Below are positions 2 to 55,266 of a stretch of 64,000 nt of DNA, in pieces (position 1 is the stretch's first letter; each line of letters starts with the position of its first letter). The notes under the pieces were generated by a model. It saw only the letters and a list, made by a program, of their open reading frames with translations, did no database searches and was not told the DNA's origin. The DNA is from a virus. Its lineage: Duplodnaviria; Caudoviricetes. The DNA is taken from the IMG/VR virus record IMGVR_UViG_3300031994_000020. One strand, written 5' to 3'. Position numbers and translations under genes: made by a program.

Positions 2-1186
2 AAATGTCGTAAGACAATGGCGGCAGACACTAACTTTTATACCTATAAAGATGGAACGAAATGCGAATTATGCAAAGCATGCTTAACTATGCACATAAAT
101 AATTAGGAGCCGGAGACATTTCTTTGGCTTTTGGAAAAATTTGATGTTCCTTGGATTCCATCAGAATAGAATGTATTAAGAGATAGAGCTTATCAAAAAG
201 ACCCCCATAAGATGACCGGTATGTCTGTCTTTGGTAAGTATTTGTCTAAAATGAAATTAAAACAATAGAACAAATATACTTAGGCAGATACTGAAAGGCT
301 AAAAGCGGAAGCTGAAGAAAAAGCTAAAAAATATGGTATGCCTGATGAACAAGCGCAAGCTCAATTAGAAGAAATGAAAACTGCTTATGAAAATGGAGAA
401 ATTTCAGAAGCTCAATATAAAACATATGCAGAACAAAATGCACCAGAGCCAACACCCGAACCTGCGGCGGCTCCTCCTTCTGATGGATATGAGTATCCGG
501 TAAATTCTCCCTTTGAGGAAGTACCCATTGTAGATGTAGGTGCGGATCTTACTGATGAAGATAAAATTTACTTGGCTATGAAATAGGGAAGACTTTATAA
601 AGCATATGAATGGGTTGCGCTTGAGCAATTATATAAAGAGTTTATGGATTCATTTGATATTCAAGGTGCAGCAAGAATCGACACTCTTAAAATGATATGT
701 AAAACAAGTTTAAAAATGAATCAAGCAATAGATTGCGGGGACGTCGATTCGTACCAGAAGTTATCTAGAGTATATGATGCCATGATGAAATCCGCAAAAT
801 TCACAGAAGCTCAAAATAAAGAAGGTAAATCTGATTTTGTTGACTCTGTTGGTGAATTAGTTGCTTATTGTGAAAAGAATGGTGGACAAATTCCTAAACA
901 TGAAATTAAAGCTCCTTATGATATTGTTGATAAAATTATAAATGATTTAAAAGAATATAATAAGACTTTAATATATGAAGATAAATCATTAGCGGAAGAA
1001 ATTGAACAATATTTAAAGAATAAAGAAATTGCTGAGAATATGAAGAGAGATAGAGAAGCTGCACGAGAAAAAGGTCAAGATGAAGTTGAATTAACTGATG
1101 AAGATTATGAAAATTTTAAAAAAGCAATAGCAGAAGATAAAGAAAAAGATCAACAACTTGAAGCGGGAGGTGCTGATGAAGAATGA
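2..1186 (+). CDS. Putative terminase small subunit (5' truncated; N-terminal Cys cluster); 5 in-frame TAG read as Trp
   Basis: One frame from base 2 to TGA 1184-1186, with TAG at 104, 167, 266, 281, 584 and no TAA/TGA. Joins ORFs 338 and 644. ATGA overlap with terminase large gene. Function inferred from position. Confidence 0.6.
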
Positions 1187-2922
1187 GTTTACAAAATTTA
1201 TTAGACCTCTCAGAATCAAGATCAGTTAAACAAGGTCTTTCTGAAGAAAGATTAAAAGAACAAATTCCTCATTTGAGGAAATTAATCTCTTTTTATAGAG
1301 AATATCCTGATTATCTTGTTGATTTTATGAAAGGTCCAGATAGTACTTTTCAATTTTATTTTTATCAAAGAATATTTTTAAGAGTGGTAATGCGACATAG
1401 ATATGTTTATGCAACCTTCCCTCGTGCTTATAGTAAATCATTTTTAAGTATGATGGTTTTGATGCTTAGATGTATTCTTTATCCTAATAGTCAATTATTC
1501 GTAACGACGGGCGGAAAAGAGCAAGCTGCAAGTATCACAATAGCTAAGATAGAGGAGATATGTAAGCTGATTCCCGCACTTAATAATGAAATAAATTAGA
1601 ACCGCGGTGTTTCTAAAAAATCTAAAGATGATGTAAAATATGTATTTAAAAACGGTTCTTCTATTGATATACTTGCGGCAAGACAATCTTCCAGAGGTCA
1701 ACGTAGAACAGGTGGCCTTATGGAGGAATGCGTGCTTATAGACGGTGATATACTTAATGAAGTTATAATTCCTACTACAAACGTAGATAGATTACTACCG
1801 GATGGAAGTAGACATAAAGAAGAAAATGTAAATAAATCTCAAATATATATTACAACGGCGGGATAGAAAAATAGTTTTGCATATGATAAACTTGTGGAAC
1901 TTTTAGTCCAGAGTGTAATTGATCCAAATGAGGTTATGGTAATAGGTGGAACTTATGAGACACCAGTAACTGAAGGACTATTAGATGAGTCTTTTGTTGA
2001 TCAACTTAAAATACAAGGTACTTATAATGATGAATCTTTTGATCGTGAATATAGATCAATCTGGTCTGGTGATGTAGAAAATGCTTTTTATTCAGCAGAA
2101 AAATTTGATAAACATAGAGTATTATTACAGCCAGAGTATGAATATAGCGGAAGGTCCTCTAAATCAGCCTACTATGTAATTGGCGTAGACGTTGGTCGTA
2201 TTGGATGTACGACAGAGGCTTGTGTATTTAAATCAACACCTCAACCACAAGGTTCAGATCTTAAGACTCTTGTTAATATTTATACTTACGAATCAGAAGA
2301 TTTTGAAACACAAGCAGTTAATTTAAAAAAATTATATTATAAATACAAGGCGCGGGTGCTCTCTATAGACGCCAATGGTCTAGGTATTGGTCTCGTTGAT
2401 TTTATGACTAAAGCTCAAGTAGATCCAGAGACTGGTGATGATTTACCTCCATTTGGAGTTGAAGGCGGTACTTCAGAAGACGCTTCAGAGCTTTATAAAA
2501 ATATAAAAGGGTATGGAGTTGAAGAAAATGCCATGTATTTAATTAAAGCAAATGCTCCTATAAATACAGAAGCTTATTCTTATGCTCAAACACAAATGTC
2601 AAGCGGAAAGGTAAAGTTTCTTATTGATGAACAAGCTGCAAAGACTAAATTAATGAGTCAAAAACAAGGACAGACATTAAATGCAGATCAAAGAAATGAA
2701 TATCTTAAACCTTTCGTTTTAACTTCAATATTAAGAGAACAAATGTTAAATTTGGTACAGGATAATGAAGGTGTTAATATTATTTTAAAGCAAAATAATA
2801 AAAGTATTAGAAAGGATAAATTTTCTGCTTTTATTTATGGTTTGTATTATATAAAACAAGAGGAAGATAAAAAGAGAAAGAGAAAGAAAAGAGATATAAG
2901 TCAAATGTTATTTTTTAGTTAA
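1183..2922 (+). CDS. terL: Terminase large subunit (579 aa; TAG at 1597, 1864)
   Basis: Walker-A-like FPRAYSKSF, RGQRRTGGLMEE (Walker B region), YITTAG[TAG]K motif III, nuclease VIGVDVGR and KDKFSA. Fragments 1183 and 1894 are in one frame separated only by TAG. Confidence 0.9.
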
Positions 2923-2923
2923 C

Positions 2924-2970
2924 TTGGGCAGTGAAAATTAAGAGAAGTAAGATTAAATTGATATACAGTA
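2924..2970 (+). promoter_or_regulatory. Candidate late-promoter motif copy
   Basis: TTGGGCAG-N6-TTAA-N16-TTGATATAcagTA; matches 7 other intergenic copies. Confidence 0.5.
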
Positions 2971-2985
2971 TAAAGGAGATTGATT

Positions 2986-3342
2986 ATGAGAGCAAGCCGT
3001 GGTGAAATAAAGATAGAAGATATATTAACTGATGCGGGATTGGTATTTAAAGAAGAGTATAGTTTTTCAGATCTCGTATCAAGTAGCGGTAGACCACTCA
3101 GGTTCGATTTTGCAGTCTTTGATGATAATGGAGACTTAGATTTTTTAATTGAGTATCAAGGTATTCAACACTATCAAGCTAAATCTAAATTTGGTGGTTC
3201 AAAAGGTCTTTATAGACAAAAATATAATGATGCTCAAAAAAGACAATATTGTCAACAACATAATATAACTTTAGTTATTATTCCTTATTAGGATGAAAAT
3301 ATACTTGATTACGATTATATTATGAAAGCGGCAGGATATTAA
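2986..3342 (+). CDS. PD-(D/E)XK (Vsr/DUF559-like) endonuclease; TAG at 3289
   Basis: LRFDFAVF..IEYQGIQHY..IIPY[TAG]DE, matching the typical IPYW ending. AAGGAG RBS; TAA at 3340. Confidence 0.75.
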
Positions 3343-3363
3343 TCCTGTCGTTTCCTTTGTTGC

Positions 3364-3392
3364 TTGACAATTTAGAAAAAATATGTTATAAT
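3364..3392 (+). promoter_or_regulatory. SigA/sigma70-type promoter upstream of the portal gene
   Basis: TTGACA-17 nt-TATAAT with extended -10 TG. Confidence 0.8.
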
Positions 3393-3422
3393 AGAAATAT
3401 AGTGAGAAAAGGAGGTGTCTCT

Positions 3423-5042
3423 TTGCGTAATAGAATTAAAGAAAATCATATTAAAGATTTTAGTATGATGACACCAAGAGATACTAACCCTAATCAAACT
3501 TCTGGTTATCAAGGTATCCCCGCCATTGATTTTAATAAGATTAGGATTGGTGCGAAAACCCTTGATGATGCCATTCTTAAATTAGGTGATTTAAAGAAAG
3601 CTAATCCAAAATTAGCAGATAAAGGAACTATATTAAAAGCTATAACTAGTTATGATTTACAAACTATGAGAGAAGCATCTGATTTATTTTATAAAGTAAG
3701 TGGTATTTATTCTCGTATTATTAAATATATGGCTTTTATGTATCGCTATGATTGGATGATTACTCCTTTCGTTAATGATGAATCTGTTAAAAAAGAAAAA
3801 TTATTAAAAGGTTTTCAAAATGCTTTAAATATATTAGATAATTTTGGAGTAAAGAAAGCTTTTGGAGAAATTGCTAAAGAAGTACTTTTACATGGAGCTT
3901 ATTATGGTTATAAGGTAGATACAAAGGAAGGAATGTGTTTACAAGAACTTCCTGTAAATTATTGTAGAAGTAGATTTAATCAAGGCAAAAGACCGGCAGT
4001 TGAGTTCAATATGAAATTTTTTGATGAACAGTTTAGAGATGCCGCACAGAAGATGAAAGTATTAAAAATGTTTCCAGATGAATTTTCAAAAGGTTATATT
4101 TTATATAAGCAAAATAAATTACCTCCTGAATTCATGGGTGATACAAGTGGTTAGTATTTATTAGATCCAAATAAGACTGTTAAATTTAATATTGCGGGAG
4201 ACGATTATCCTCCATTTATAGCAGTCATTCCTTTATTAATTGATTTGGATGAAGCACAGGCATTAGACAGAAAGAAAACTTTACAAAGATTATTAAAGAT
4301 AGTAATTCAGAAGATGCCGTTAGATAAAAATGGTGAATTAATATTTGATGTGGATGAAGCTCAACAGCTTCATAATAATGCTGTTCAGATGTTAAGTAGA
4401 GCAATTGGTGTGGATGTCTTAACTACATTTGCAGATGTTGATGTAGCTAGTATGACCGAAAATCAGGCATCTGCGCAGACAGATGATTTAGCAAGAGTTG
4501 AAAGACAAGTTTTTAATGAAGCTGGTTTATCTCAGATGCAATTTAATACTGATGGAAACATAGCATTAGAGAAGTCTATATTAAATGATGAATCAAGTAT
4601 TTATAATATGATTCTTCAGTTTGAGCAATTTTTAAATGAGCTTATTGAACCATGTAATATGGGTAAGAAAGCTCAATTTAAAGCACAGATATTAAGCACT
4701 ACAATTTATAATTATAAAGAGTTATCTAAATTATATAAAGAACAAATGCAAATTGGTTTCTCAAAGATGTTACCTCAAATTGCACTTGGTCAATCACAAA
4801 GTAGTATTCTTGCTAATGCATACTTTGAAAATGATATACTTGATCTGGTTAATGTATTTATACCTCCTTTAATGAGTTCTACTATGAATGAAAATATTCT
4901 TAATAGAGTTAAAGGCGGGAACCCAGGCACTGGGAGTCCATCAACTAACCCTGGTAAGGAACAGGAAGGCGCCGGCCGCAAGGAATTACCAGATGATCAA
5001 AAGTCAACAAAGACTATTCAAAATAGAGAGAGCATGAATTAA
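3423..5042 (+). CDS. Portal protein (TTG start; TAG at 4152)
   Basis: GGAGGTG RBS. Fragments 3357 and 4245 are in frame (SG[TAG]YLLDP). About 540 aa, located between terminase and protease. Confidence 0.75.
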
Positions 5043-5055: not shown

Positions 5056-6405
5056 ATGGCACGAATGAGTGTTGCAACGATAGATTCTCCGGAGTTTATT
5101 AATATTACTTCTATTAATCCTCTTGTTTCTAAATGTGAGATAAAAGTTCTTTATGTTGGAGAGAATAGAAATAGAAGTTTTATTTCAAAAGAAGTAGCTA
5201 CTGAAATGGCGCAGACTTTACCTGGATGTCCTATTGTTGGCTACTATATTGAAAATAAAGAAGACTTTGGAGATCATGGTGACCAAATGATTATTGATGG
5301 TGAGGGTATTAAATTTAATAAGCTCACTAAACCTTATGGATTTGTTGCTCCTGATAGTAAAATATAGTTCCAAAAGTTTGAAGATACTGATGAATTTGGA
5401 AATACTGTTATTAGAGATTATTTAATGACAGAAGGGTATATTTAGACTGGACAGTTTGAAGAGTGTCAGAGAGTTGTCGATAAAGGAAATCCGCAATCTA
5501 TGGAACTTGATGAAAAAACTTTAAAGGGTCATTGGTCAACTGATAATAATCGTGGCATTGATTTTTTCATTATAAATGACGCGATATTTTCTAAGTTATG
5601 TATTTTAGGAGAGGACGTTGAACCTTGTTTTGAAGGTGCTTCAGTTTCTGCTCCTCAAGTAAGTTCTCATTTTAGTATGGATAATGAATTTACAGCTACT
5701 TTATCATCAATGATAAAAGAATTAAAAGAACTTACTTTTGCATTACAAAATAAAGGAGGAAATTCAATGGACGGTATGGAGAACACAACACCAGTAGTTG
5801 AAGAACAAGCTATTGAAGTACCTGCCGCAGAAGAAGTTGCTACAGAAAATTTTTCTGCTGAAGAGGACAAAGTAAGTTCAGAAACTATAGTTGAAAATCA
5901 AAATACAGTAGAAGAGTTCGAAAAGAAAGAAGAACCTGAAGAGGAAAAGAAAGAAGAGTCTGAAGAGAAAGAAAAAGAAGAAGATGATGAAGAGGAAAAA
6001 GAGCCTAAGAAAAATCATTCTTTAGAAGATGAATTTGCTTTAGTAAAAGAAGAACTTGACGAACTCAAGAATCAGTATTCACTTTTACAGAAAGAAAATG
6101 AAGAACTTATTAAGTTTAAGAACTCTGTAGAAGATGAAAAGAAAGATGCTCTTATAAATTCTTTCTATATGCTTTCTGATGAAGACAAGAAAGAAGTTAT
6201 TGAGAATAAATCTAAATATTCTTTAGATGATATTGAAGCTAAACTTTCTGTTATTTGCGTAAGAAAGAGAGTTAATTTCAATAATGAAGAAGTAAAAACA
6301 GAAGAACAGCCTGCTCTTATTTACAATTTTAATGCGGCAGAAGAAGTTGATGCACTTCCTGCATGGTTAAAGGCTGTTGAAGCTAAACGAAACAATAATA
6401 ATTAA
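5056..6405 (+). CDS. Prohead protease-scaffold fusion (449 aa; TAG at 5365, 5443)
   Basis: NRNRSFI, PIVG, EGYI[TAG]TGQ, QSMEL, LCILGEDVEPCFEGA, then an acidic coiled-coil C-terminus. Lies just before the capsid genes. Confidence 0.75.
5767..6405 (+). CDS. Probable nested scaffold protein (internal in-frame start)
   Basis: AAAGGAGG RBS immediately upstream of in-frame ATG 5767; E/K-rich product with no TAG. Confidence 0.55.
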   Translation: MDGMENTTPVVEEQAIEVPAAEEVATENFSAEEDKVSSETIVENQNTVEEFEKKEEPEEEKKEESEEKEKEEDDEEEKEPKKNHSLEDEFALVKEELDELKNQYSLLQKENEELIKFKNSVEDEKKDALINSFYMLSDEDKKEVIENKSKYSLDDIEAKLSVICVRKRVNFNNEEVKTEEQPALIYNFNAAEEVDALPAWLKAVEAKRNNNN

Positions 6406-6418
6406 GGAGGAATATACA

Positions 6419-7114
6419 ATGGCATTTACAAGAGTCGGATATGGTCAAGTAGAGCCTAATCAACTTTCTGCTCAGAAAACTGGCCAGATTTATGCTAGTC
6501 TCCCTCTTGATCCTACTGTTAACGTACTTCAGAATGGTGAATTCATGTATTATGATTATGCCACTGGTAAAGTAACAGCAGATGATTCAACAGGTGTGGC
6601 AGAGCCTATGCTCGTATTCAATGAAATAAAACTTTATGAACCTTTCTGGAGACGTTCTTATAAAGATTTTGCAATGATTAGAGTTGGTGACAATTATGTT
6701 ACTTCTGATCTTGCAGTTAATGGACCTATCGAAGGAAAATATGGTGATGGCGCTTTAACAACAGGCGTTGTTCCTACAGCAAATTACATGGATGATCAGA
6801 CACCTCCAGTACAGCAAACACTCACCGGTCATACTGAGTATCCTTATCGAATGGATGGTATCGCACCTCGTCTTTTCAAGACAAATGTAGGTGATATTTA
6901 TACTACTAATATGGTTAAAGCTGGTGCTAATGTAACTTATGCTGTTGGTGCATTACTTGTACCTGTTAAAAATACAACTTCAAAGACACTTGTTCTTGAA
7001 GAGTTCGTACCTGCTCAGACAGGCGATAAGCCTACTGGTATGGCATGGGTTGTTGTTAAAGTTTACACAATGCCTGATGGTCAAGATGCTGTTAAGCTTC
7101 AGAGAGTACAATAA
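6419..7114 (+). CDS. Capsid decoration/cement-like structural protein
   Basis: AAGGAGG RBS; lies between scaffold and major capsid; no TAG. Confidence 0.6.
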   Translation: MAFTRVGYGQVEPNQLSAQKTGQIYASLPLDPTVNVLQNGEFMYYDYATGKVTADDSTGVAEPMLVFNEIKLYEPFWRRSYKDFAMIRVGDNYVTSDLAVNGPIEGKYGDGALTTGVVPTANYMDDQTPPVQQTLTGHTEYPYRMDGIAPRLFKTNVGDIYTTNMVKAGANVTYAVGALLVPVKNTTSKTLVLEEFVPAQTGDKPTGMAWVVVKVYTMPDGQDAVKLQRVQ

Positions 7115-7133
7115 TTAATAGGAGGATAAGAAA

Positions 7134-8165
7134 ATGGCTTTAGAATTTAAAGATGTATTAGCATTAGCTAAAACCGTAGCCAAGGCTAATTCTTCTGCTC
7201 CTACTGCGTACAGCTTTGGAGATAAGAAATATAGCTATAATGAGTTACAGGAAACTTTAAGAGATGAGTTCAAGGAAATCGCTGGAACTTATTCACTTTA
7301 TAGAGAAAATAAGAATACTGTATTTGCTCTTTTAGAGCAGACAATTGACGATGTATTACCCGCAAGAGTTCTTGAACAATATGGTCAGTTCGCTGAAATC
7401 AAGACTTTCGCACAGGGTGACAAGCCTATCTTCACACAGAAGATAACAACCGCTTCAAGAAGACGTGCAAGACAGTTTATCGGAAAAGTTGGTCTTGCTG
7501 GTTTATACGAAGTATTCAAGCTTGATGGAACTAGCTACGAAGTAACAACCAATGCAATTGGTGGTGCTGCGCAGATCGGTTTTGAAGAGTGGATGGATGG
7601 TCGTGTAGATTTCGCAGACGTTCTTGATATAGTAATGGAAGGTCTTGATTCTTGCATCTATGTTGAGATTGAGAAGCAGTTATTAGGTGCTGTAGGTATT
7701 ATGCAGGCAGCAAATAAGAGATCTGTAGCTGGTTGGAGTGAGACCGATATGGACGCTTTAATCTCCATCGCTGATTCTTATGGAAAATCTGCTATTTACT
7801 GTACATATGAATTTGCAGCAACTATGGTTCCTGCTCAGGGCTGGGTTTCTGATGAAATGAGAAATCAGAAGTGGAATAATGGTTATATCGCTAACTATAA
7901 GGGTCATACAGTAATTGTTCTTCCTCAGTCATATGAAGATGAAACAAATAAGGTAAAGGTTATCGATCCTAGTTTCGCATACATTATTCCTGTTGGTGCT
8001 GAAAAACCTGTTAAGATTGCATTAGAAGGACAGACAATCGTTGATGAATACACCAATTATGATAGATCAAGAGAAGTACAGATCTATAAGAAGATCGGTG
8101 TAAGAGCTATCTTTTCTAACGCTATCTGTGTATATCAGAACACAACATTAAAACGTGGTATTTGA
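7134..8165 (+). CDS. Major capsid protein
   Basis: 343 aa, strong RBS, position after protease/scaffold, followed by a terminator. All 4 Trp are TGG. Confidence 0.8.
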   Translation: MALEFKDVLALAKTVAKANSSAPTAYSFGDKKYSYNELQETLRDEFKEIAGTYSLYRENKNTVFALLEQTIDDVLPARVLEQYGQFAEIKTFAQGDKPIFTQKITTASRRRARQFIGKVGLAGLYEVFKLDGTSYEVTTNAIGGAAQIGFEEWMDGRVDFADVLDIVMEGLDSCIYVEIEKQLLGAVGIMQAANKRSVAGWSETDMDALISIADSYGKSAIYCTYEFAATMVPAQGWVSDEMRNQKWNNGYIANYKGHTVIVLPQSYEDETNKVKVIDPSFAYIIPVGAEKPVKIALEGQTIVDEYTNYDRSREVQIYKKIGVRAIFSNAICVYQNTTLKRGI

Positions 8166-8857: not shown

Positions 8858-8881
8858 TATTAGAAGAAAGTGAGGTGCCGA

Positions 8882-9487
8882 ATGAGTAGAATAAAAGCTC
8901 CCACCTCATTTGTAACCATATATGATAGTTTCTTTGCAAGAGTAACTGATGATATGTATATGGAGATAACTGAACTTGAAACGTTAGAAATGTTACAAGA
9001 CCTTTTATTAAATGCTATTTCTAGATTTGAATTTCCTAGAGTAGATATATTCGATTATGAAGAAGGTCATTAGGAAGATATGGGTACTTATAAAGGCGTT
9101 GAAAGTGAAAATAAAAAAGTGCCAGCTACCGGATAGGTAGGTGGCTTTTTTAATTATCTTCTGACTGATGAAGAAATTAATATTCTTGCTTTAAATATGG
9201 TTATAGAATGGTTAGGACAGCAATTAGATACTACTGAAAATTCAAGAATGAAATATAGTGGTTCTGATTTTAAATTTACTTCTCAAGCTAATCATATGGC
9301 TAAATTAAAAGTTCTTATAGATGCACATAAACAAGATTGTGTTCATTTACAGAGAATTTACAAGAGAAGAGTATTTACTGAAAATGGTGCCCAATCCACC
9401 ATGGGTCAGATTGTCTCTCGCCCTGATTATGGAGTAGACAAAATTAATAGAATAGGTTGGTATTCTAAACGTGGTATTAAAATATGA
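8882..9487 (+). CDS. Putative head-tail adaptor (TAG at 9071, 9134)
   Basis: GAGGTG RBS. Fragments 8870 and 9197 are in frame. SDFKFTSQANH motif; position in the neck module. Confidence 0.6.
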
Positions 9488-10726: not shown

Positions 10727-10752
10727 TTAAAGGAGATACAAGGAGGGATAAT

Positions 10753-11337: not shown

Positions 11338-11340
11338 TTT

Positions 11341-12075: not shown

Positions 12076-12110
12076 CCAATTTAGCTAAATTTATTAAGGA
12101 GGAAAAAATA

Positions 12111-13328: not shown

Positions 13329-13342
13329 TTATAAAAAATATG

Positions 13343-23595: not shown

Positions 23596-23598
23596 AAT

Positions 23599-42783: not shown

Positions 42784-42797
42784 AGGAGGTACAATGA

Positions 42798-43766: not shown

Positions 43767-43790
43767 CAAATAAAGGAGGTATAAAATAAA

Positions 43791-46700
43791 ATGCCATTAA
43801 TCAAACAAATTAACTTAGACAACGATGGTGTTGTAACCTCATATGATATTGCGGCAGATGCTACTAACGTAGAATTACAAAGCCCTGTCACAATAGATGA
43901 ACAACAGTATGAAACTGCGGGAGGCGCGTTAGAGGCGGCCGCCGCAGCTATAAATAACATAGAAATAGATATAGCTGATCTTGGTATAAGCAAGATAGGT
44001 ATATCTCAGATTGGTATGGCTAATGGTGTTGCAAGTCTTGATGCTAATGGTAAGATACCAGTTTCTCAGTTGCCTAGTACCGGTTCGGATGTATATCGTT
44101 ACAATATAGTTACCAAATCAACGGGCGGTTCGGATGCAGCGATAACTATAAAGAAATATCTTAATGAAGAGTTGGTATCATCAACTGACTACCCTTATAA
44201 GACATTTGATCATACCCATGTGATTATTGATAGTTTATTTGACATGATTTATGCCGAAGATGGTCAGGCTAAGTATACAATGACTTTACTTGAGAACTCT
44301 ACCGATCATAATGCCGGATATTCAAGAAGATGGCAATACAATGAAACTGTAGACTTCTCAGAAACATTCATAATGTCAGATGAAGATATTTCGTTTATCG
44401 CTCCTCCATTCTACGCAAATGTATCATATGTTGTTGGCGATAAAGTAACACGTAATGGTAACTTTTACAGATGTAAAATGCCTCATACCGGTGCATGGGA
44501 TATTGCTGATTTCGATAAGATATCTGTGGATGAGTTATTTGACGAGGTGTATGATTCTCTTGATGATATCGCAATTGACATAACGCAACTTGGTATAAGT
44601 AAGGTAGGCATTTCCCAGGTTGGTATCGCTGGAGGTGTTGCTAGTCTTGGTAATGACGGTAAGGTACCGAACAGTCAGTTACCTGCTATACCTACGAAAG
44701 TTTCAGAACTTCAAAATGATAGTGGATTTATTACAGGATATACAGAAACCGATCCTACAGTTCCCGCCTGGGCGAAAGCTTCTACTAAGCCTAGCTATAC
44801 TGCAAGTGAGGTCGGCGCAGTTGCAACTACAGCTGTCGGTAGCGCTAATGGAGTCGCTGAACTAGATAGCACAGGTAAGGTACCTGCCGCACAGCTTCCT
44901 TCTTTTGTTGATGAAATTATAGAAGGTTATCTGAATCCCGCAGATGGTAAGTTTTATGAAGAATCTACTTATGAAACAGAAATACTTGGGGAAGAAGGTA
45001 AGATATATACTGAATTAGCAACTAATAAGACTTATAGATAGTCTGGTTCCGCATTCGTTGAGGTAAGTGAGAGTCTTGCTCTTGGTGAAACATCATCTAC
45101 CGCATATGCGGGCAATAAAGGTAAAGCAAATGCAGATGCGATTGCCGCAATTAAAGATGGAACTAACATTGACAGTTTTAGTGATGTTGAGACTGCTCTT
45201 AGTAATAAGCAGCCTAAGACTCTTGATACTCCTATAGTAGTAGATGAAACAAGTTATACTACTGTAGAATCTGCTATGAATGCTATTAATAATAAAGCTG
45301 TGATAGTAGATGATGAAATGTCTGATACAAGTATTAATCCTGTTCAGAATAAGGTTATTACAGAAGCTTTAAATGGCAAAGAAGATGTGATGGAATATAC
45401 CTCTGATACTAATGTGCTTGAAGTAAATTTACAGCATAGTGCTTTAGTATCAGGCATGGCGATTGACATACAGCCCATACAGGACTTACACGGATATGAT
45501 AAACCGTGGGTTGGTGGCGCTTCAAAACAGCTTCTCCCCTTAACGGTAGCAGGATTAAAAGCATTAAACACCACAGGAACATGGTCTGGAAATAATTATT
45601 CCATTCATGGTGGAGTGATAACCCTTTTAACAGATACGGATGAAAACGTAATAGGGATAAATGCAAACGGGACATTTACCACAAGAGTAGACTTTTCTTT
45701 AGGTAGCGTGTCTCTTAATGGAAGTTATGTTATAAGTGGTTCAACAAATGGTGGTTTGGATAAGTGGATTATATGGACAAGAAGCCACGGCACAGTATTA
45801 TCCGAAATGTCCATGGATGGTGCGGGATATTATAGTGAGACATCAGGAAGTGCCAAAGAATCAGTATTAACTATTTATCCCGGAACGATTAGCAATCAAA
45901 AGTTCTATCCAATGCTTTGCTTGCAGTCTGCTGAAAATCCGACTGTATTTGAACCGTATACAAATGAATGTGCGATAAGTGGAACAAGCAAATTAGATAT
46001 CGTTTGCGCACAGACTTCCCAAATGCTGATACCTACAAATAATGAAAGCGTATATGGTAACGGTTTAACAATGTATTATTTGGGTAAAGGTAAATACAGA
46101 GTAAAAGGAATGCCGACAGCAGGAGCAGGCTTATATAAGAGAATTCAAAGCTTTTATATTTATGGTGGTGATAATTGTCGAGTAAAATTTAGAAATAATA
46201 TAGCAAATAGTGGCATTAGTTTGTCATTTATGAGCGGCTCATCTGTTTTAGATACCTTTTCATTAAATACAGTAAATAGAGAAGGAGGATACAATGCACT
46301 TAAAAATAAATATTGTGATGCTTTTAGAGTAAATATCACTAATACGGGAACATACCTTGATTTTACATTTCAAGTGGAGTTTTATGATTCCCAATTATAC
46401 AATGCCTACACCATCGACCTCAATGGCACACGCTACGGAGGAACACTTGACGTAAAGACGGGCGTGCTGACGGTAGATAAGAAGTTCGCCACCAAAAGAT
46501 GGGGAACATATACACGTACAGATACATTAGGTAAGATGGTTCGTAGACAGATAGGTGCGTTATCCGATGCAAAATCAAACACCACTAATATTATATCAGA
46601 ATTAGCTCCGATGGTGCGTGATTGGGATTCGGACACTTGCCATTTCTATTTGGCAACACAGAATGTAACAATGTTCCTTCCTGTTGGTACGTCAGATGAC

Positions 46701-48695
46701 ACCGAAGTAAATGTGGTATATGAATTAGATACTCCTCTCACCGTTCAGCTTACCCCTACACAGGTAGAATTACTTAAAGGCTATAACTACATTTCAGTTA
46801 ATGGAAATACAGTGATAAGTAAGTTAAATGCTTTTTCGGATGATGCTGTTAAGTATTTAGAGCCGATTATTGATGGGAAGATGACTAAAGGTGTCGACTA
46901 TGTAACAGCCGGACAGAAAGATGGAACAACTCTCGGAACATATGCTACGACAGAAGGACATAATTCCTCTGCTCCTGGTTATGCTGCTCATACAGAGGGA
47001 AGTAACTCAGCAGCAAGCGCATCATGTGCTCATGCAGAAGGATCTGGTACAAGAGCATCTGGTCAGTATTCGCATGCGGAAGGAGAGCAAACAGTAGCAA
47101 GTGGAACATGTGCTCATGCAGAGGGACATGGAACTTCTGCTGGACGTTAGTCACATGCTGAAGGGTACGAAACTAATGCGGAAGAATATTCCCATTCAGA
47201 AGGTCGTGGTACTAATGCTGGATATACTTATTCTCATGCTGAAGGGTATTATACCCAAACAAATTGTGATTATCAACATGTTCAAGGTAAATATAATGAA
47301 GGTAAGCGAGAAACGGCATTTGAAATAGGTAATGGTACGTCAGAAAATGCTCGTTCTAATGCTTTTGAGGTTGATTGGAGTGGCAATGTGACCGCGGCCG
47401 GAGATATTACTGATGGTAATGGTAATAAACTTGCCGATAAGTTAAATTCCGTAAATCCAGCAGTAACTGGACAATTAACTATTGATGGAGTGAGTATTCA
47501 AAAATATGCAACTAAAGACTCGATGGCGTATCAGACGACAATATACGCTTCCCAAGAAGGTGAAACAACATTTAGAGCCGATTATACTGATTGTATTGTT
47601 GATTTTGCTGTAAACGGTTCCATTGTTGATACCGGAATTATACCTTATACTTATAATGGAATAAGTGTCAGTGGTAGTAGTATGACATATGACGGTTCAC
47701 AGGATAAAGACGTAATTGTAAAGATTTACTATGTTGATTCTGTTGGAGTAAAAGTAGACGGTGATGTTATTGATAGTTCTGGAAATGTATTAAGAAATAA
47801 ACTTAATTCTTCAGATATAAGCGCGTAGGCGAAAGCAAGTACGAAGCCAACGTATACAGCATCCGAAGTGGGGGCAATAGCTGTTGATGCAGGCTTTGTA
47901 CATACAGATGATATAACATACGACCCTGATATAAAAACAGTAACGTGTACAAAGAGTGTAAATGGTTGGACGTCACAGATATACTCAAAATCAGGATATG
48001 TTGATAATGTATTTGTAACATTTAAGCCAGATTCAAGAAATGGGTATCGTATGGTTGGGCTTGATTCTAATCCATCTGAATCAGTAGACTTCACTTCTAT
48101 TGATTTTTGCTTCTTTTGTCAAGGTGGTGGAAGCTTATACATATTTGAAAGCGGGACACAGATAACACCACCTGCTGGGCATACTACCTATAGTGCTGGG
48201 GATGAATTACGCATAGAGTATAGTGATGGATTTGTTAGATACTATCACAACGGGGAGCTTGTCAGAAGCGTAGCAAGAGCTATTGGCAATCCTTTATATC
48301 TCGATTCATCATTCTACAATAGCGGAAGTGTGTATGATGTTGAGTTTGGAGCAGGACTCGGAAATACAAATAAGCCGACAGTTGTATATGAAGTGGGACA
48401 ATTAAGCAATAGTCAGACTTTGGTAGATAGTTTTAAAGAGTTTGCAAGAGCACATAGTGCAGAGCCTACAATAAGTTTTGAGGGCATAGGCTATATAAGC
48501 GGCGGCACTCAATCTGATTTACCAGCGGTTTCTACTGTATGGACTTATGCAACAGTTAAATTTATAGTCCGATTTGCCGAAACTTTAGGCAGAGAAGATG
48601 GTACAATTATATTATATGGCTATGATTCTAACAAAATAGCTATGAAAGCAATCGCCAATGGTACTGCTCGAAGTGGATGGTTAATACTTGAATAA
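43791..48695 (+). CDS. Tail fibre/receptor-binding protein 2 (1634 aa; TAG at 45039, 47148, 47826)
   Basis: 4 fragments in one frame; GVASLDxxGKVP repeats, NKTYR[TAG]SGS, HAEG repeats, mosaic C-terminal domains. Confidence 0.8.
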
Positions 48696-49376: not shown

Positions 49377-49895
49377 ATGATTACATTAGCAATAGATGCT
49401 TCAACGAAGTCAACAGGTTAGAGCATATTTGAAAATCAAGAATTAAAAGATTATGGTTGTATTACGGCTTCAAGTTCAAATCTCTACAATAGAATAGATA
49501 AAATGATAGAAGAAATAGATAAGATACTTCAAAAATATAATATAGAGCAAGTTGTAATTGAAGAAGTATTACCAGAAGATGTTAAAGGTAATAATTCTGT
49601 TTTCAAAGCACTTATGTATCTTCAAGCATTTATCGCACATAAATTAAATCAATATGATATTATTCCAAAATTTATAGTATCATCAGAGTGGCGAAAAAAA
49701 TGCGGGATTCATACTGGGCCTGGGATTCGTAGAGAGAGTCTCAAACCAAAAGACATTGCCTTTGTAAAATCTCAATTTGGTATTAATACAAATGATGATG
49801 TTGCAGATGCAATATGTATAGGATTTGCTGCGGTAGGTGGTACTATCAAAGAAAACCAAGTGATAAAAACAGATGATGGATTTGAGTTTGCATGA
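49377..49895 (+). CDS. RuvC-like Holliday junction resolvase (TAG at 49419)
   Basis: LAIDASTKSTG[TAG]SIF, VVIEE, SEWRK, DDVADAICIG. The first catalytic Asp lies upstream of the TAG. Confidence 0.85.
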
Positions 49896-50110
49896 TGCAC
49901 TTGGGCAAACTTGATAAAATTGCTTACCGCAATTTTTAAATAATATTACAAGGGAATAAATTACTTTCTCATAGGTTCTCTGATAACCTAGTTTTTACTC
50001 CCTAGTAAATAAAATACTTTCATAATCTATGTGAAAGTAATATCCTTTTAAATTCTTAATTGATATATCTATCAACAATTCTTTTTAAATTCCACAAGGA
50101 GAGAAGTACA

Positions 50111-50560
50111 ATGGGTAACTTTAACAATTTTCAACGTAATAGTAATTTTGCACCTTTTTATACCCCATCTTCAGTAGTGAGTACTACACCAACGAATAAT
50201 ATTATTTAGGTTCAAGGAATAGAAGGGGCTAAAGCATGGCAACTTGCACCTAGTAGTATTGCAATTCTTTTAGATAGTGAATCAGATGGCAAAATGTATA
50301 TTAAGGTAAGCGATAATATAGGTATGTCTACATTAAGAATTTTTAATTATGTGGAAGAAATACCTAATAACAATGTAAGTACAAGTGTAACCGTAAACAA
50401 TGATTTGGATTTAACTCAATATGTGAGAAAAGACGAATTAAGCAAATTGATAAAGGAGTTAATAGGAAATGAGCAATCTTTACCAACAACTGATGCGGCA
50501 GGCCCCGCCCCTTCAACCACAAGCCCAGGCCCCGCAAAAGTTACAATCCTCAAAAAGTAA
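50111..50560 (+). CDS. Conserved Firmicutes phage hypothetical protein (TAG at 50207)
   Basis: NII[TAG]VQGIEGAKAW..LLDSE..MYIK; AAGGAG RBS. Confidence 0.7.
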
Positions 50561-50753
50561 TTTTTCATTAAAAAATCTTATGAATATCTCCGACCCTTCC
50601 TCGTTCATTCAGAACATGGTCGCGAGCAATCCCCAATTACAAAATGTAATGCAATTATTTCAATCAAGCAAACTTTCCCCAAAAGAATTTTTTTATCAAT
50701 ATGCTAAGCAGAATGGAGTAGATCCAGATCAGTTTCTAAATTCTTTAAAATAA
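50469..50753 (+). CDS. Gln/Pro-rich hypothetical protein
   Basis: AAGGAG upstream; NPQLQNVM..PKEFFYQYAKQNGVDP; overlaps the previous gene by 92 nt. Confidence 0.65.
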   Translation: MSNLYQQLMRQAPPLQPQAQAPQKLQSSKSNFSLKNLMNISDPSSFIQNMVASNPQLQNVMQLFQSSKLSPKEFFYQYAKQNGVDPDQFLNSLK

Positions 50754-50766
50754 GGAGGACATAATA

Positions 50767-51468
50767 ATGTCAGAAAATGGTCTTAGTGCTAGTGATGTTG
50801 CTTTATTAAGCGGAAACCGCGATGGTTTTAATGGATGGGGAGATTCTTCATTCTTTTGGATCTTTGCATTATTAATTCTTGCCGGCGGTGGATTCGGTGG
50901 TTTTGGTTTTGGCAATAATGGATTTGCTAATGCTATTGGTTATGAAAACCTTGCAACTTCTAATGAAGTCCAGAGAGGATTTGATAATCAGAACTCCATG
51001 GCTAACCAGAGAGATATACTTGCCGCAGTAAATTCAGGAACCGCACAAGCAGTTGGTGCTACTAATCAAGTTTATCACGATATAGTAGGTTATGTCGGTG
51101 ATAAGTATAATGAACTTGATAGAGACATCTTTGGTGTAGGCAGCGCTGTTCAGCAGTCAATAGCAAATCAGAACGAATGCTGCTGCGGAACCAAGATGCT
51201 CATGATGGAAACAGGAGCTGGAATCAATGCAGGAATAGCTCAGAACCGTTATGAAGCAGCTATGAATACAGCCGCAATTAACGCAAATACAACAGCACAA
51301 ACACAGAAAATCCTTGATGCTATCCAAGGCAATAGAATAGCAGATTTACAGGATAAAGTTAATCAGCTTGAATTACAGAGTCAACTTGCTTCTGTAGTAC
51401 GCTATCCTAACAATACTTTCTACGCAGTTCCTTCACCTTGCTTTAATTGCGGATGCGGGAATATCTAA
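50767..51468 (+). CDS. Gly-rich TM / coiled-coil / Cys-tailed hypothetical protein
   Basis: FFWIFALLILAGGGFGGFG, QNECCC, TQKILD, CFNCGCG. Confidence 0.75.
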   Translation: MSENGLSASDVALLSGNRDGFNGWGDSSFFWIFALLILAGGGFGGFGFGNNGFANAIGYENLATSNEVQRGFDNQNSMANQRDILAAVNSGTAQAVGATNQVYHDIVGYVGDKYNELDRDIFGVGSAVQQSIANQNECCCGTKMLMMETGAGINAGIAQNRYEAAMNTAAINANTTAQTQKILDAIQGNRIADLQDKVNQLELQSQLASVVRYPNNTFYAVPSPCFNCGCGNI

Positions 51469-51512
51469 TTTAAATCTTTAAACGTCCATTTGACGAGGTA
51501 ATTTTTCACTTC

Positions 51513-51541
51513 GAGGGCGTTTTCTACACGCCCTCTTTTTC
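51513..51541 (+). terminator. Rho-independent terminator
   Basis: GAGGGCGT/ACGCCCTC plus T tract. Confidence 0.7.
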
Positions 51542-51563
51542 TTAATTTAAGGAGGACAATCAA

Positions 51564-51971
51564 ATGAGCAAGTCTGCTATTTATACCGTAAATTCTTCTG
51601 CACAAAATGTTGCAGTTAATGGAACTATTAATTTAGGTACAATCATTAGAAGATATGGCCCAAATGTAAATTTAAATGGAAATGCTATAACTATAAGCGG
51701 AGGCGGGTACTATGATGTTGATGCTTCTATAACATTAGCGCCTACCGCCGCTGGAAACGTAACTGTAACCGCATATAAGGATAATGTTGCGATCCCTGGA
51801 GCTACAGCTAGTGCTACAGCGATCGCCGCAAATGATTTAGTCAATCTCTCTATTTCTTCTATTGTAAGAGAATCATGTGCATGTTGTGAAAGTTTATCTA
51901 ATATTACTTTAGTATTAACAGGAACTGCCGCAAGCATTTCTAATGTAGCTGTTGCTGTGGAGAAACTTTAA
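51564..51971 (+). CDS. Beta-sandwich protein (BclA-C-terminal-like, tentative)
   Basis: ITISGGGYYDVDASITL..AIPGATAS; fold assignment is inference. Confidence 0.5.
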   Translation: MSKSAIYTVNSSAQNVAVNGTINLGTIIRRYGPNVNLNGNAITISGGGYYDVDASITLAPTAAGNVTVTAYKDNVAIPGATASATAIAANDLVNLSISSIVRESCACCESLSNITLVLTGTAASISNVAVAVEKL

Positions 51972-52540
51972 TGACAATAGAAGAAGTATTCAGCGGAATA
52001 GGTCAGAGAATGGTTGAAGGTTTAATGACTCATTCTCAATTAGCTGATTATTTTGGTTTTTTAGGATTAGAAGGTTATCAACAATGTCATTTATATCATT
52101 ATTTTGATGAAAATTGTAATTATAAAAAGATAAGTAATTATTATTTAAAACATTATAATAAATTATTAATAGATATGCCTTTTAAAAATCCTAATGTAAT
52201 ACCTGCTGATTAGTTTAGATACAATAGACAGCAAGTAACAAGTGATATTAGAAAAGATTCTATAAATGCGGGATTTGAAAAATAGGTAGAATAGGAAAAG
52301 AACACTAAAATATTTTATGAGCAAATGTATCGCACACTATCTCAACTTGGAGAAGATGCGGCTGCCGCATTTATATTGGATTTTGTAAAAGATGTAGATT
52401 GTGAGCTTGCGGAAGCTCAACAAAAATATCTTGAACTGACTGCTATTGATTATGACATTACTAATGTAATGGAAGAACAAGAGAGAGTAAAAAAGAAATA
52501 TAAAAATAAAATAAAGGAGATTTCATTATGTATGATATAA
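51971..52540 (+). CDS. Ferritin-like four-helix protein (3 TAG)
   Basis: FLGLEGY..HLYH..E, IPAD[TAG]FRY, K[TAG]VE[TAG]EKNTK, DVDCEL; fragments in frame. Confidence 0.65.
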
Positions 52541-52720: not shown

Positions 52721-52758
52721 AAGGACGTAGATTATTTATCTACGTCCTTTTTCTTTTT
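52721..52758. terminator. Terminator between the convergent late and early arms
   Basis: AAGGACGTAGAT/ATCTACGTCCTT stem with A- and T-rich flanks. Confidence 0.8.
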
Positions 52759-53779
52759 ATAAATTTAATATAAAATCTCTGAAACTTTGAGTTTCAACGA
52801 AACTACAACATCCTATTTGACTTCCCATTTTTACTCTATTGTATCTATCTGGCATACCATATATATATTTAATAATATCCCAATCATTTAATCTGAGTTC
52901 TTCTATAATCTTTCTTTTTAATGACTTTAAAGCATCATAGCTTTCAACTAATGTATCATTAGCACCAAGTCTCCATAAGCTAGCTTGATAATAAAAATAT
53001 CCATGAAGTAAAGTCATCATAATTTGATGGAGTCCAAAATTCTTAAGATTTTGGTCATCATTATTTAAATACATATCAAAGAAAGGATAGCTTGCCCCCA
53101 TAAGAAAATCTCCAAGATATGTGTCTATGTAAAAATTTTTTTCATTAAAATAAGACCTTGATAAAGACTCTGGATTGTGAACCCATTTATAAGTATAAAT
53201 AGGAACATAAGCATAATCTTCTCCTATTGATATTAAAGAAGCTAAGTTACACGAGTTAAAGAAAACATCTTCATGTGACATTAAATCTTCTTTAAAATAA
53301 CAATGAAATTTATTTAATGTATTTTCTACATTAAAATATTTTCCATGGAGCCAAGTATCTGTTTCATCGCCATGAAATTCTCTTCCATAGGTTTGTGTAT
53401 CATAAAAGAATTCTCTAAATTCTGTGCATAATGTGTATTCTATACCATCTTCTTGTATTATTTTAAATACTGTCTTAAAAGCATTTGGTTCAAACATATC
53501 ATCATTGTCTATAAAAGTAAGCCATTCTCCGTGTACATAAGGGAGTGCGGCCTGCCGCGTATTTCCTGGACAATGTACCTCCCGCGTTGTTTCACAATAT
53601 ACAATATTCATTTTATCTTCAAATGTTTTTACCACATTAAGAAAATTATCAGTTGATTTATCATCACAAATAATAACTTCATAATCATCTTTATGAAGTC
53701 CATTATCTAATACGGATTGTAACAATCTACCTATTGTTTTTTCACAATTATAACATGGTACAACGATTGATAATTTCAT
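52757..53779 (-). CDS. Glycosyltransferase family 2
   Basis: SIVVPCYN, ICDDKSTD, FIDNDD, HEDVFF. Confidence 0.9.
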   Translation of the reverse strand: MKLSIVVPCYNCEKTIGRLLQSVLDNGLHKDDYEVIICDDKSTDNFLNVVKTFEDKMNIVYCETTREVHCPGNTRQAALPYVHGEWLTFIDNDDMFEPNAFKTVFKIIQEDGIEYTLCTEFREFFYDTQTYGREFHGDETDTWLHGKYFNVENTLNKFHCYFKEDLMSHEDVFFNSCNLASLISIGEDYAYVPIYTYKWVHNPESLSRSYFNEKNFYIDTYLGDFLMGASYPFFDMYLNNDDQNLKNFGLHQIMMTLLHGYFYYQASLWRLGANDTLVESYDALKSLKRKIIEELRLNDWDIIKYIYGMPDRYNRVKMGSQIGCCSFVETQSFRDFILNL

Positions 53780-53800
53780 CCTTTTATCTCCTTAAAAGAA

Positions 53801-53830
53801 AAGCCCTGATATTTTTATATCAGGGCTATT
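53801..53830 (-). terminator. Terminator after the dUTPase gene
   Basis: AGCCCTGAT/ATCAGGGCT stem with T tract on the - strand. Confidence 0.65.
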
Positions 53831-53832
53831 TT

Positions 53833-54276
53833 TTATTTTATTCCAGTACTTCCAAAACCGCCCTCGCCGCGCTCTGTACTATCAAGTTCATCAACTTCAT
53901 TAAATGAAACTTTAGGACATTCCATTATAATAAGCTGCGCGATTCTAGTTCCTGCGGGAATTATCTGCTCTATATCTGTATCATTATGTATTGCTACAAC
54001 TACAGGACCTCGATAATCTGCGTCTATAACTCCAACACAGTTCGCAGGTCTAAGTCCCTGCTTTGTAGCGAGTCCACTTCTCGCAAAGATAGCTCCAAAA
54101 TAACCATCTGGAATCGCCATTGAAAGTCCCGTATCAATTTTTACGGTTGCGCCAGGAGGAAGCTCTATATCATAGTTTGTGGCTGCATAGAGGTCGGCGC
54201 CCGCAGAAAAAGCAGTACCAAAAGTAGGCATTTTAGCAAGATTGTTTAATTTCTTAATATCTATATTTATTACCAT
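53833..54276 (-). CDS. dut: Trimeric dUTPase
   Basis: AGADL, RSGLA, GVIDADYRG, RIAQL, RGEGGFGSTG. Confidence 0.95.
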   Translation of the reverse strand: MVINIDIKKLNNLAKMPTFGTAFSAGADLYAATNYDIELPPGATVKIDTGLSMAIPDGYFGAIFARSGLATKQGLRPANCVGVIDADYRGPVVVAIHNDTDIEQIIPAGTRIAQLIIMECPKVSFNEVDELDSTERGEGGFGSTGIK

Positions 54277-54278
54277 AA

Positions 54279-54602
54279 TTAAAATTCCACTCCTTCATCA
54301 TCGTCATCGTCTATATCATCATCTGTTGTTTCTTTTACTATTGGCTCAGGGAAATATCCTGGATCAACATTATAACTAACAGAAGCAGTACAATCAGGCT
54401 CTTTTTCAGAAGTGAAATCTTCAGTAAGGGTAACTCTATACCATTCATCTTCTATTTCACCTTTTACCTTTTTACATTTGTATTCTGAGCTGTACTTTGA
54501 TAATGTAAAATTACGGTCTCTTTTAGCTTCTTCTATAAGCTGCTTAGCTTCTTCCTCATTAGGAACTCTATAAGTAAGAACACTTCTTATAAGATATTTC
54601 AT
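54279..54602 (-). CDS. Hypothetical protein
   Basis: Intact ORF with RBS. Confidence 0.65.
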   Translation of the reverse strand: MKYLIRSVLTYRVPNEEEAKQLIEEAKRDRNFTLSKYSSEYKCKKVKGEIEDEWYRVTLTEDFTSEKEPDCTASVSYNVDPGYFPEPIVKETTDDDIDDDDDEGVEF

Positions 54603-54621
54603 CCTTTTTATCTCCTTTTTA

Positions 54622-54876
54622 TTATATCATTTCAACAGTAATAGGAAAATCATTAAATTCTGTACTTCTATTAAGTTCTCTTTGAACTTTATCTCCTATT
54701 GCTTCCCAACCTTTAATTTTAAGAATAGGAGTGTCATTTTGTCTACATAAGGCATAACATACATGTTCTATATCACTTAAAGCACAGTCTATTTCTTGAA
54801 TACATCTTTCATTATCATAAACGCATACTTTTTGTTTTAATACAAAAGGACTTATAACTGCTACGACTTGTTTCAT
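54622..54876 (-). CDS. Hypothetical protein
   Basis: Intact ORF with RBS. Confidence 0.65.
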   Translation of the reverse strand: MKQVVAVISPFVLKQKVCVYDNERCIQEIDCALSDIEHVCYALCRQNDTPILKIKGWEAIGDKVQRELNRSTEFNDFPITVEMI

Positions 54877-54888
54877 ATTTTTTTCCTC

Positions 54889-55266
54889 TTATGCTGATAT
54901 AATACCATGAGTATAGTCAAAAAGATAATATACAAAACATTCTTTAGTATCAGGATCTTTTATCCAAATCTCATAATTGCCATCTTCTAATAATTCTATG
55001 TCAATAATCTCTCCTCTGTTTTGTAAAGTAGGTCTTAATTCTTTTACAATACCATCAAGAGTGAGAGGAATAAAAATTGTATAATCTCTTCTTTCATGGC
55101 ATAATAGCATCCAATATGTCTTTTTATTATTAGTTGCTTCTTCCTAAATATGTTTTCCCATATCATAGGATTTTATATTAAATGTTATAGTTTCAAGCGG
55201 AGCTTCTTGACTCATAGCTTGTTTGTTTATAGAATATAAAGTTATATCTGTATTTAATTCTGCCAT
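54889..55266 (-). CDS. Hypothetical protein (125 aa; one TAG at 55146-55144)
   Basis: MAELNTDITLYSINKQ..KHI[TAG]EEA..YWMLLCHERRDYT; the start lies just downstream of a promoter and an RBS-like sequence. Confidence 0.7.

Follow-up and report, generated by a model that had tools for sequence, protein, structure and literature searches.

A phage genome in which TAG very probably means tryptophan, and a candidate decoder tRNA carrying a second tryptophan anticodon hairpin

We have examined a 64,000-nucleotide (nt) stretch of DNA, hereafter the window, from a phage of the Caudoviricetes (IMG/VR record IMGVR_UViG_3300031994_000020) and found that its late genes use the codon TAG as sense. The recoding itself is confirmed. 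As to its meaning, TAG very probably stands for tryptophan (Trp, W) while TAA and TGA remain stops, which formally corresponds to NCBI table 32 (the match concerns the assignments only, the phage code and that of plastids being evolutionarily unrelated). The window corresponds to the reverse strand of G000:C1:55212-119211, within a single 146,105-bp IMG/VR virus contig (G000) that is 93% complete according to CheckV, has a G+C content of ∼31% and belongs to a phage of gut or rumen type. Its + strand carries morphogenesis genes up to ∼52.5 kb and its − strand carries replication and nucleotide-metabolism genes from 52.7 kb onwards. The putative decoder, a tRNA(CUA) encoded elsewhere on the contig, displays the Trp anticodon CCA in an extra hairpin.

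Under translation table 11, positions 1-52600 of the window contained 86 non-overlapping open reading frames (ORFs) of at least 60 amino acids (aa), with a coding density of 0.753. When TAG was read as sense, the split pieces joined into long ORFs, leaving 38 ORFs and a density of 0.959, and neither a TGA-as-sense nor a TAA-as-sense reading mended the + strand arm or its density. The original prediction, that on the order of a hundred TAGs split essential genes into fragments that stay in frame, is thus borne out: 124 in-frame TAGs lie within 2-55266, in 23 genes including those of the terminase large subunit (TerL), portal, tape measure and RuvC, nearly all of them in the + strand morphogenesis arm. 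The late genes together hold 127 in-frame TAGs, which are spread evenly along gene length with no pile-up at the 3′-ends, and about 59% of the Trp codons of the late (structural and lysis) genes are TAG. The 36 late genes stop at TAA (24) or TGA (12), in-frame TAA and TGA being zero in them by construction of the gene set. It had also been claimed that every gene ends in TAA or TGA, and this stood for the large, tightly packed late genes, partly by that construction, and possibly fails for about ten small ORFs outside the late arm that have a TAG at most 20 codons before their TAA or TGA end (for example, in window-frame coordinates, -7811..-7467, 98899..99270 and 101182..101987, outside the window). 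These small ORFs may truly stop at TAG before the suppressor is made, in which case TAG would be context-dependent early on. TGA is the stop of 12 of the 36 late genes and of 9 of the 38 early ones, and code 4, in which TGA is Trp, accordingly does not describe this genome.

The recoded codon clusters in the late and lysis genes and leaves the early genes code-neutral, as is characteristic of late-gene recoding. The 38 early genes encode Trp 184 times as TGG and 40 times as TAG, and these 40 TAGs cluster in a few genes outside the window, which encode the endolysin (5 TAGs; an adjoining small gene is also recoded), a GIY-YIG endonuclease and a DUF285 protein (13 TAGs). Inside the window, the replication and nucleotide-metabolism arm (52757..62732, − strand) is essentially devoid of TAG, with only one, in 54889-55266, and reads identically under either code. 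We looked for a nucleotide bias following TAG and found none worth reporting. TAG as a genuine stop with fragmented genes, general G-to-A damage and a dual TGA/TAG code were considered and dropped.

To find which residue TAG stands for, we used a codon-level tblastn comparison with related DNA in place of a Codetta-style tally, Pfam covering few of these proteins. The TAG-containing genes were translated with X at each TAG and searched against the DNA of relatives, and the subject codon opposite each X was recorded. The set comprised 165 related loci, from Enterococcus phage H1, Geobacillus virus E3, Alicyclobacillus KKP_3916, phAss-1 and a 12-kb faecal contig, plus 160 IMG/VR loci taken around TerL and around a baseplate gene; the IMG/VR relatives are not phylogenetically independent, and for that reason counts are given per site. 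A total of 3366 aligned codons at 114 TAG sites were obtained, among which TGG was found 1498 times, TAT 334, TTT 164, TGA 123 and CAA 22 times, CAG being rarer than CAA (outside the 25 commonest codons). The 123 TGA codons come from relatives in which TGA is Trp and are therefore further votes for Trp. Five or more informative residues were available at 93 sites. The most frequent one was W at 45 of these sites, Y at 12, T at 7, I at 6, F at 5 and glutamine (Gln, Q) at none, so that code 15, under which TAG columns should be mainly Gln, does not fit. A log-likelihood comparison with sites equally weighted, which used a substitution table learned from these same alignments, placed W best, with Y, F and Q lower by 77, 92 and 190 units, respectively. 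Enterococcus phage H1, a cultured phage with the standard code, carries W at 7 of the aligned TAG sites and Y, F, I and V at 4 each.

Controls gave the same picture. The phage's own TGG codons aligned with W in 54%, Y in 15% and F in 8% of cases, a profile that matches the TAG sites, and its own Gln codons with Q in 40% and E and K in 11% each. Applied to relatives, the same pipeline returned Gln for TAG in G009 (19/46 sites), glutamate (Glu, E) for TAG in G007 and G008 (51/113 and 49/95 sites), Trp for TGA in G005 (12/20 sites) and a weak Gln signal for TAG in phAss-1; by returning Gln, Glu and Trp for differently recoded relatives, the method discriminates between residues. Composition agreed with the tally, since TGG (0.52%) and TAG (0.75%) add up to 1.27% of late-gene codons, close to the 1.25% of TGG in early genes. 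An additional line of evidence needs no database at all: in the protein encoded at 38666-41002, five to six tandem repeats (38830..39650, + strand) have three Trp columns in which 8 TAG and 9 TGG codons are interchanged, while an invariant Gln column (QY) is written with CAA or CAG only. Outside the window, the TAG of the endolysin motif HR*F (the asterisk marks TAG) aligns with the W of a 63%-identical Lachnoclostridium amidase. By eye, the C-terminal G*GK...G*IN of the endolysin resembles the GW pattern of SH3b domains. Three of the motifs cited in the original prediction had Trp in most relatives, namely TTAG*K (69/77), IPY*D (60/80) and GYI*TG (60/60). As far as comparison of sequences goes, these results show that TAG sits where Trp is selected in evolution, in agreement with the residue first proposed, and that the tally excludes Gln.

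A suppressor tRNA matching the recoded codon is encoded by the phage, as in other recoded phages. This tRNA(CUA), of 93 nt, lies outside the window at G000:C1:10262-10354 and lies 8 nt after a tRNA-Trp(CCA); its T arm is identical to that of this neighbour, its acceptor stem differs by one compensated pair, and it has G73. Both ARAGORN and the Rfam tRNA model (54.2 bits) put CUA in the anticodon loop. Its four canonical stems are intact, pair 1:72 being G-U where 19 of 24 family members have A-U, and its variable region contains an insert of 21-22 nt that folds as a hairpin with a 5-7 bp stem and the 7-nt loop GUCCAAA, a copy of the Trp anticodon loop (CUCCAAA in the tRNA-Trp(CCA)). The same design is found in the relative G005, in which TGA is Trp: its 96-nt tRNA (L167:1856-1951) has the anticodon UCA and a perfect second Trp anticodon hairpin, with stem CGGGU/ACCCG and loop CUCCAAA. 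With its G73 and canonical D, anticodon and T arms, tRNA(CUA) has the Trp-like body of this group, to which we refer as decoy-arm tRNAs.

Scanning IMG/VR with a pattern that specified the extra loop, we found 30 decoy-arm tRNA genes in 30 contigs, all with anticodon UCA and serving TGA to Trp; tRNA(CUA) is 84% identical to one of them. In an alignment of 24 sequences the extra helix was paired in 96.9% of cases, three of the four counted pairs varied on both sides, and the controls all scored far lower. When the scan was repeated without specifying the extra loop, CCA occupied that loop in 37 of 57 distinct long-arm tRNA(UCA) genes, mostly as xUCCAAA, and the remaining ones resembled Sec- or Ser-type arms. 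Judged by this covariation, the extra hairpin is structurally conserved and retains CCA. Throughout the family, the anticodon of the first hairpin follows the recoded stop (UCA with TGA, CUA with TAG) and the second keeps CCA. This tracking contradicts the opposite arrangement, with the CCA hairpin as the true anticodon arm and the CUA hairpin as an insertion, which we dropped also because ARAGORN and Rfam put CUA in the canonical arm.

No other tRNA combining CUA with a decoy arm appeared in pattern scans of IMG/VR and of JGI/ENA metagenomes; one of the patterns required Y before TCCAAA and was blind to the GTCCAAA type, which other scans included. What these scans did return were chance matches and ordinary tRNA-Trp genes, together with an unrelated tRNA(CUA) of 85 nt and a single odd, repeated tRNA-like gene. 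Likewise, blastn of tRNA(CUA) against GenBank phages gave nothing relevant, a DNA search for it in four close relatives gave no match, and only chance matches came from 401 genomes of the bacterial order to which the best endolysin match belongs. As a separate observation, two contigs from human-gut or other metagenomes (L216:1-150 and L217:14290-14436) carry a tRNA-like gene whose end is formed by a T arm and acceptor strand of the Trp family; its upstream part consists of two to three tandem CUCUAAA (amber-reading) anticodon-arm-like units followed by a CUCCAAAA hairpin, and ARAGORN calls no tRNA in it.

How might such a tRNA work? Bacterial tryptophanyl-tRNA synthetase (TrpRS) depends strongly on C34, C35, A36 and G73. 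Host TrpRS, normally needing the CCA anticodon, would accept tRNA(CUA) through the decoy hairpin, which would supply the missing identity signal and leave the real anticodon free for a stop codon; tRNA(CUA) would then decode TAG as Trp, provided that it outcompetes release factor 1. TrpRS and tyrosyl-tRNA synthetase (TyrRS) are class I enzymes that bind tRNA in a class II-like manner, with the variable arm facing the enzyme, and contact with the decoy hairpin is therefore conceivable. The wider proposal is that the decoy hairpin uncouples tRNA-Trp identity from the real anticodon, so that phages could give Trp to any stop they choose, and that this phage switched a tRNA of the UCA family to CUA, creating TAG = Trp on a standard-code host; we consider the chances of this proposal to be even. 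The replication arm, nearly free of TAG and never needing a TAG stop, is readable by an unmodified host. Full-length late proteins would be made only after tRNA(CUA) accumulates, and the recoding may in this way control entry into the late programme, a role that Borges et al. (10.1101/2021.08.26.457843) put forward for other recoded phages.

Several observations weigh against reading TAG simply as Trp. Around half of the informative TAG sites have a commonest residue other than Trp (Y, T, I, F and others), although this spread equals that at the phage's own TGG sites, and a few TAGs fall where relatives conserve K, R, P or E. The tRNA(CUA) is the sole CUA member found, a singleton lineage resting on one assembled contig, and the host itself may read TAG as sense. 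There is also the precedent of Escherichia coli su+7 (supU; trpT with C35 changed to U), likewise a tRNA-Trp turned into an amber suppressor by a CUA anticodon, which is charged mainly with Gln, so that decoding could be mixed. Unlike tRNA(CUA), su+7 has no extra arm; here, in addition, the codon stands where relatives have Trp.

Ambiguous decoding is the most probable alternative. According to it, TAG would be mischarged or partially suppressed, giving mixed products, and the Trp signal would be what selection tolerates. Besides su+7, two observations favour it: no gene of the TrpRS/TyrRS family and no release-factor gene was found in the genome that could enforce the code, and the products that are likely most abundant avoid TAG, as if decoding were costly. 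Thirteen late genes, all of them still using TGG, have no TAG (on the + strand, 6377-8165, 10753-13328, 14610-15134, 29345-30250, 41210-42078 and 50767-51971); the probable major capsid gene is among them, as are others likely to be produced most abundantly, which would fit avoidance of a costly codon. However, a protein of 1810 aa with 30 TAGs would yield almost no full-length product unless each TAG was read efficiently, and TAG occurs in strictly conserved Trp columns (29/29, 32/32 and 73/73 relatives), where substitutions should hurt. We regard ambiguous decoding as improbable.

Much less probable still is that TAG encodes Gln (code 15), as published for phAss-1 and assumed by annotation tools. 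It is true that phAss-1, a distant relative whose TerL is 44% identical, was assigned this code, that our own tally for phAss-1 and G009 also favours Gln, and that the glutaminyl-tRNA synthetase of E. coli accepts a tRNA-Trp body bearing CUA as its anticodon. Nevertheless, the tally left Gln as the commonest residue at none of the 93 sites, with 22 CAA against 1498 TGG codons, and reading TAG as Gln would leave the late genes with 0.52% Trp and 4.7% Gln. An equally slim chance is given to another aromatic residue, tyrosine or phenylalanine, which rank second and third at TAG columns; true TGG sites carry the same secondary Y/F signal, both residues score far below W in the likelihood, and the tRNA(CUA) has a Trp-type body with no tyrosine or phenylalanine features. 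Finally, artefact or decay, that is, TGG-to-TAG errors of assembly or sequencing or pseudogenes of a dead phage, has next to no chance despite the genome being a single metagenomic contig, since only in-frame Trp codons of certain genes are affected, the genome encodes a tRNA(CUA) to match, and the fragments are in frame and conserved with no frame-breaking TAA or TGA.

We then placed the TAG = Trp code among relatives by means of a quick FastTree of 81 TerL sequences, in which support values were not inspected. The phage was nested in a subclade of standard-code phages, its nearest neighbour being L006, whose TerL is 92% identical and has TGG at the shared sites. At least two origins of TGA = Trp can be counted in this tree, TAG = Glu arises in several parts of it, and TAG = Gln is seen for L076 and for phAss-1. 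No suppressor tRNA was found in the closest standard-code relatives (G002, G003 and G010). The simplest reading is that TAG = Trp is a recent event of a single lineage. In this scenario the anticodon of a decoy-arm tRNA would have gone from UCA (or CCA) to CUA, and many TGG-to-TAG transitions may have followed. TGA was read as Trp in fourteen relatives (L032, L034, L065-L068, L072, L075, L079-L085). About 30 related IMG/VR contigs (L027, L035-L039, L043-L064, L069-L073, L078) have many in-frame TAGs that align mainly with Glu, as in G008, where E is the commonest residue at 49/95 sites and Q at 6/95; this suggests, from alignments, that they use TAG = Glu. Their 74-nt tRNA(CUA) (L169:5181-5254 and L170:4744-4817) is not obviously derived from the phage's tRNA-Glu, the closest match being a tRNA-Trp (66%). 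Separately, the record of Geobacillus virus E3 (L003, NC_029073) notes for GP69, a topoisomerase II, a confirmed in-frame stop with a peptide-sequenced fusion product, which would amount to read-through of a stop in a phage whose annotation uses the standard code.

Along the late arm, all genes lying on the + strand, the TAG sites could be followed gene by gene. The first gene (17..1186; phrog_3314, of unknown function) has 5 TAGs, and at sites 64, 97 and 203 W was found in 61/61, 62/72 and 65/65 informative relatives, with TGA in code-4 kin 11, 1 and 11 times, respectively. TerL (1183..2922; phrog_2), which shares 45% identity by tblastn with the TerL annotated in Enterococcus phage H1 and in Geobacillus virus E3, has 2 TAGs (sites 139 and 228; W in 71/75 and 69/77 relatives). 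The IPY*D motif belongs to a small gene with a single TAG (2980..3342) and reads IPYWE in Enterococcus phage H1. W also occupies the only TAG site of the portal protein (3357..5042; phrog_2739; site 266) in 67/68 relatives and both sites of a head-module gene (5056..6405; phrog_3313; sites 104 and 130) in 61/63 and 60/60. Two TAG-free genes follow (6377..8165), of which 7134-8165 (phrog_4088) is, by its position, the probable major capsid gene. The head- and tail-joining genes (8870..14553) include 8870-9487 (2 TAGs), 9740-10726 (6 TAGs; W at sites 100, 152 and 160 in 23/23, 22/23 and 23/26 relatives) and 13390-14553 (3 TAGs), with TAG-free genes between them.

The largest numbers of TAGs were found in tail genes. 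A tape-measure-like protein of 2797 aa (15202..23595; PF10145, PhageMin_Tail) contains 22, most of them at thinly covered sites, with W in 20/23 relatives at site 2683. The tail protein of 1810 aa (23706..29138) has its 30 TAGs against 5 TGGs and aligned with W at sites 348, 1257 and 600 in 29/29, 32/32 and 22/30 relatives, respectively. Six genes of a baseplate and tail-fibre block (30280..41002) share 38 TAGs, with W at site 143 of the gene starting at 30280 in 73/73 relatives, at site 421 of that starting at 32985 in 66/74 and at site 527 of that starting at 36012 in 25/25. Downstream, 42097..48695 encodes DUF285 proteins with 1 and 2 TAGs, respectively, and, with 3 TAGs, a CBM5/12-domain protein of 1634 aa. 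The TAGs of the DUF285 repeats sit in variable columns and are uninformative, and a PDB sequence search with the DUF285 protein gave no match. A RuvC-like resolvase (49377..49895; PF02075, PF07066) has one TAG; opposite it, W and TGA occur 9 times each in relatives, F 6 times and I 5 times. Among the last + strand genes (50060..52540), 50060-50560 (1 TAG) and 51971-52540 (3 TAGs) align with a sole relative, which has W at every covered site. Outside the window, a multi-copy zinc-finger/endonuclease-like gene has some TAGs opposite W (FWKCKC, HWICEC), whereas further ones fall at variable positions.

The − strand arm at 52757..62732 encodes a GT2 glycosyltransferase, a dUTPase, the anaerobic ribonucleotide reductase NrdD, a DUF3310 protein and the alpha subunit of DNA polymerase III. 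The endolysin (L222:11863-13173, outside the window) has an amidase domain 63% identical to a gene of a Lachnoclostridium metagenome-assembled genome (L234), and together with NrdD this match hints at a host among anaerobic Clostridia, possibly Lachnospiraceae. The contig carries 22 tRNA genes and one tmRNA (G000:C1:18416-18760; tag AKKIVSFPTKVALAA). Among the tRNAs, that at G000:C1:7792-7864 was given a 4-base anticodon (aaag) by ARAGORN, and a tRNA-Phe at G000:C1:10872-10941 has the unusual anticodon AAA. An extra tRNA of low G+C, missed by ARAGORN and detected by Rfam with 36 bits, lies just upstream of the tRNA-Trp (L166:4098-4169 = G000:C1:10097-10168). A weak Rfam match to YrlA (Y RNA-like; E = 0.22; L166:4312-4408 = G000:C1:10311-10407) begins within the suppressor tRNA and extends downstream.

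In the searchable literature, most subscription-journal papers lying outside the search, TAG/UAG to Trp was found only for the Balanophora plastid, and no paper was found on TAG = Trp in phages or on tRNAs with a second anticodon hairpin; within that scope, the view that this code is undescribed in phages holds. The reassignments that Borges et al. reported seeing in phages with a code unlike that of their host were TAG to Gln and TGA to Trp and no others, and Cook et al. 2024 and their tools handle TAG recoding as table 15. Like the recoded gut phages (crAss-like, Lak, Agate and Jade; Borges et al.; Peters et al., PMC9523058), the present phage has in-frame stops in late and lysis genes, code-neutral early genes, its own suppressor tRNA and probably a standard-code host; unlike them, it uses TAG as Trp. 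It resembles phAss-1 of the proposed Phassvirus (NCBI ‘Caudoviricetes code 15 clade’; Babkin et al. 2023, PMC10607447) in size (∼135-145 kb), in kinship to Enterococcus phages EF1 and H1, in the recoding of TAG in structural genes and in the presence of tRNA-Sup-CTA genes. It differs in that phAss-1 was assigned code 15, with which our tally weakly agrees, and in the low TerL identity; nor are the phAss-1 suppressor tRNAs of the Trp-plus-decoy type, one having a long arm and G73 and the other measuring 75 nt.

The Balanophora plastid (table 32; Su et al. 2019; 10.64898/2026.01.09.698701) shares with the phage the codon table and a duplicated tRNA-Trp whose anticodon mutated to CUA. In that eukaryotic organelle, where reassignment was described as exceptionally rare, the change followed disappearance of the codon and pRF1 loss, and the duplicated tRNA-Trp(CUA) is nuclear and imported, with no extra arm reported. 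Here, in contrast, a virus overlays its code on that of a host, and TAG makes up the majority of late-gene Trp codons. The closest known design is that of the phage decoy-arm tRNA(UCA), which has in common with tRNA(CUA) a Trp-type acceptor stem, G73, a stop-reading canonical anticodon, a covarying hairpin with the loop xUCCAAAx and up to 84% identity; it differs in that all 30 IMG/VR members carry UCA for TGA to Trp, and not CUA for TAG to Trp.

As regards annotation, prodigal-gv and Pharokka-gv use table 15 for TAG-recoded phages and would place Gln at more than 120 conserved Trp positions in the window, a mistranslation that would degrade homology searches and structure prediction. As regards the evolution of the code, the residue given to a recoded stop is not fixed by which host synthetases tolerate suppressor anticodons, and the architecture of the tRNA suggests a route past the anticodon dependence of TrpRS. 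If the decoy hairpin works as proposed, the tRNA would be nature's counterpart to an engineered orthogonal suppressor, and its design may interest builders of orthogonal Trp suppressors. It would have arisen in a phage group that also evolved, several times, TGA = Trp, TAG = Gln and apparently TAG = Glu. With its standard-code sisters, and with TGA = Trp and TAG = Glu each arising more than once, this group offers a natural system for studying change of the genetic code.

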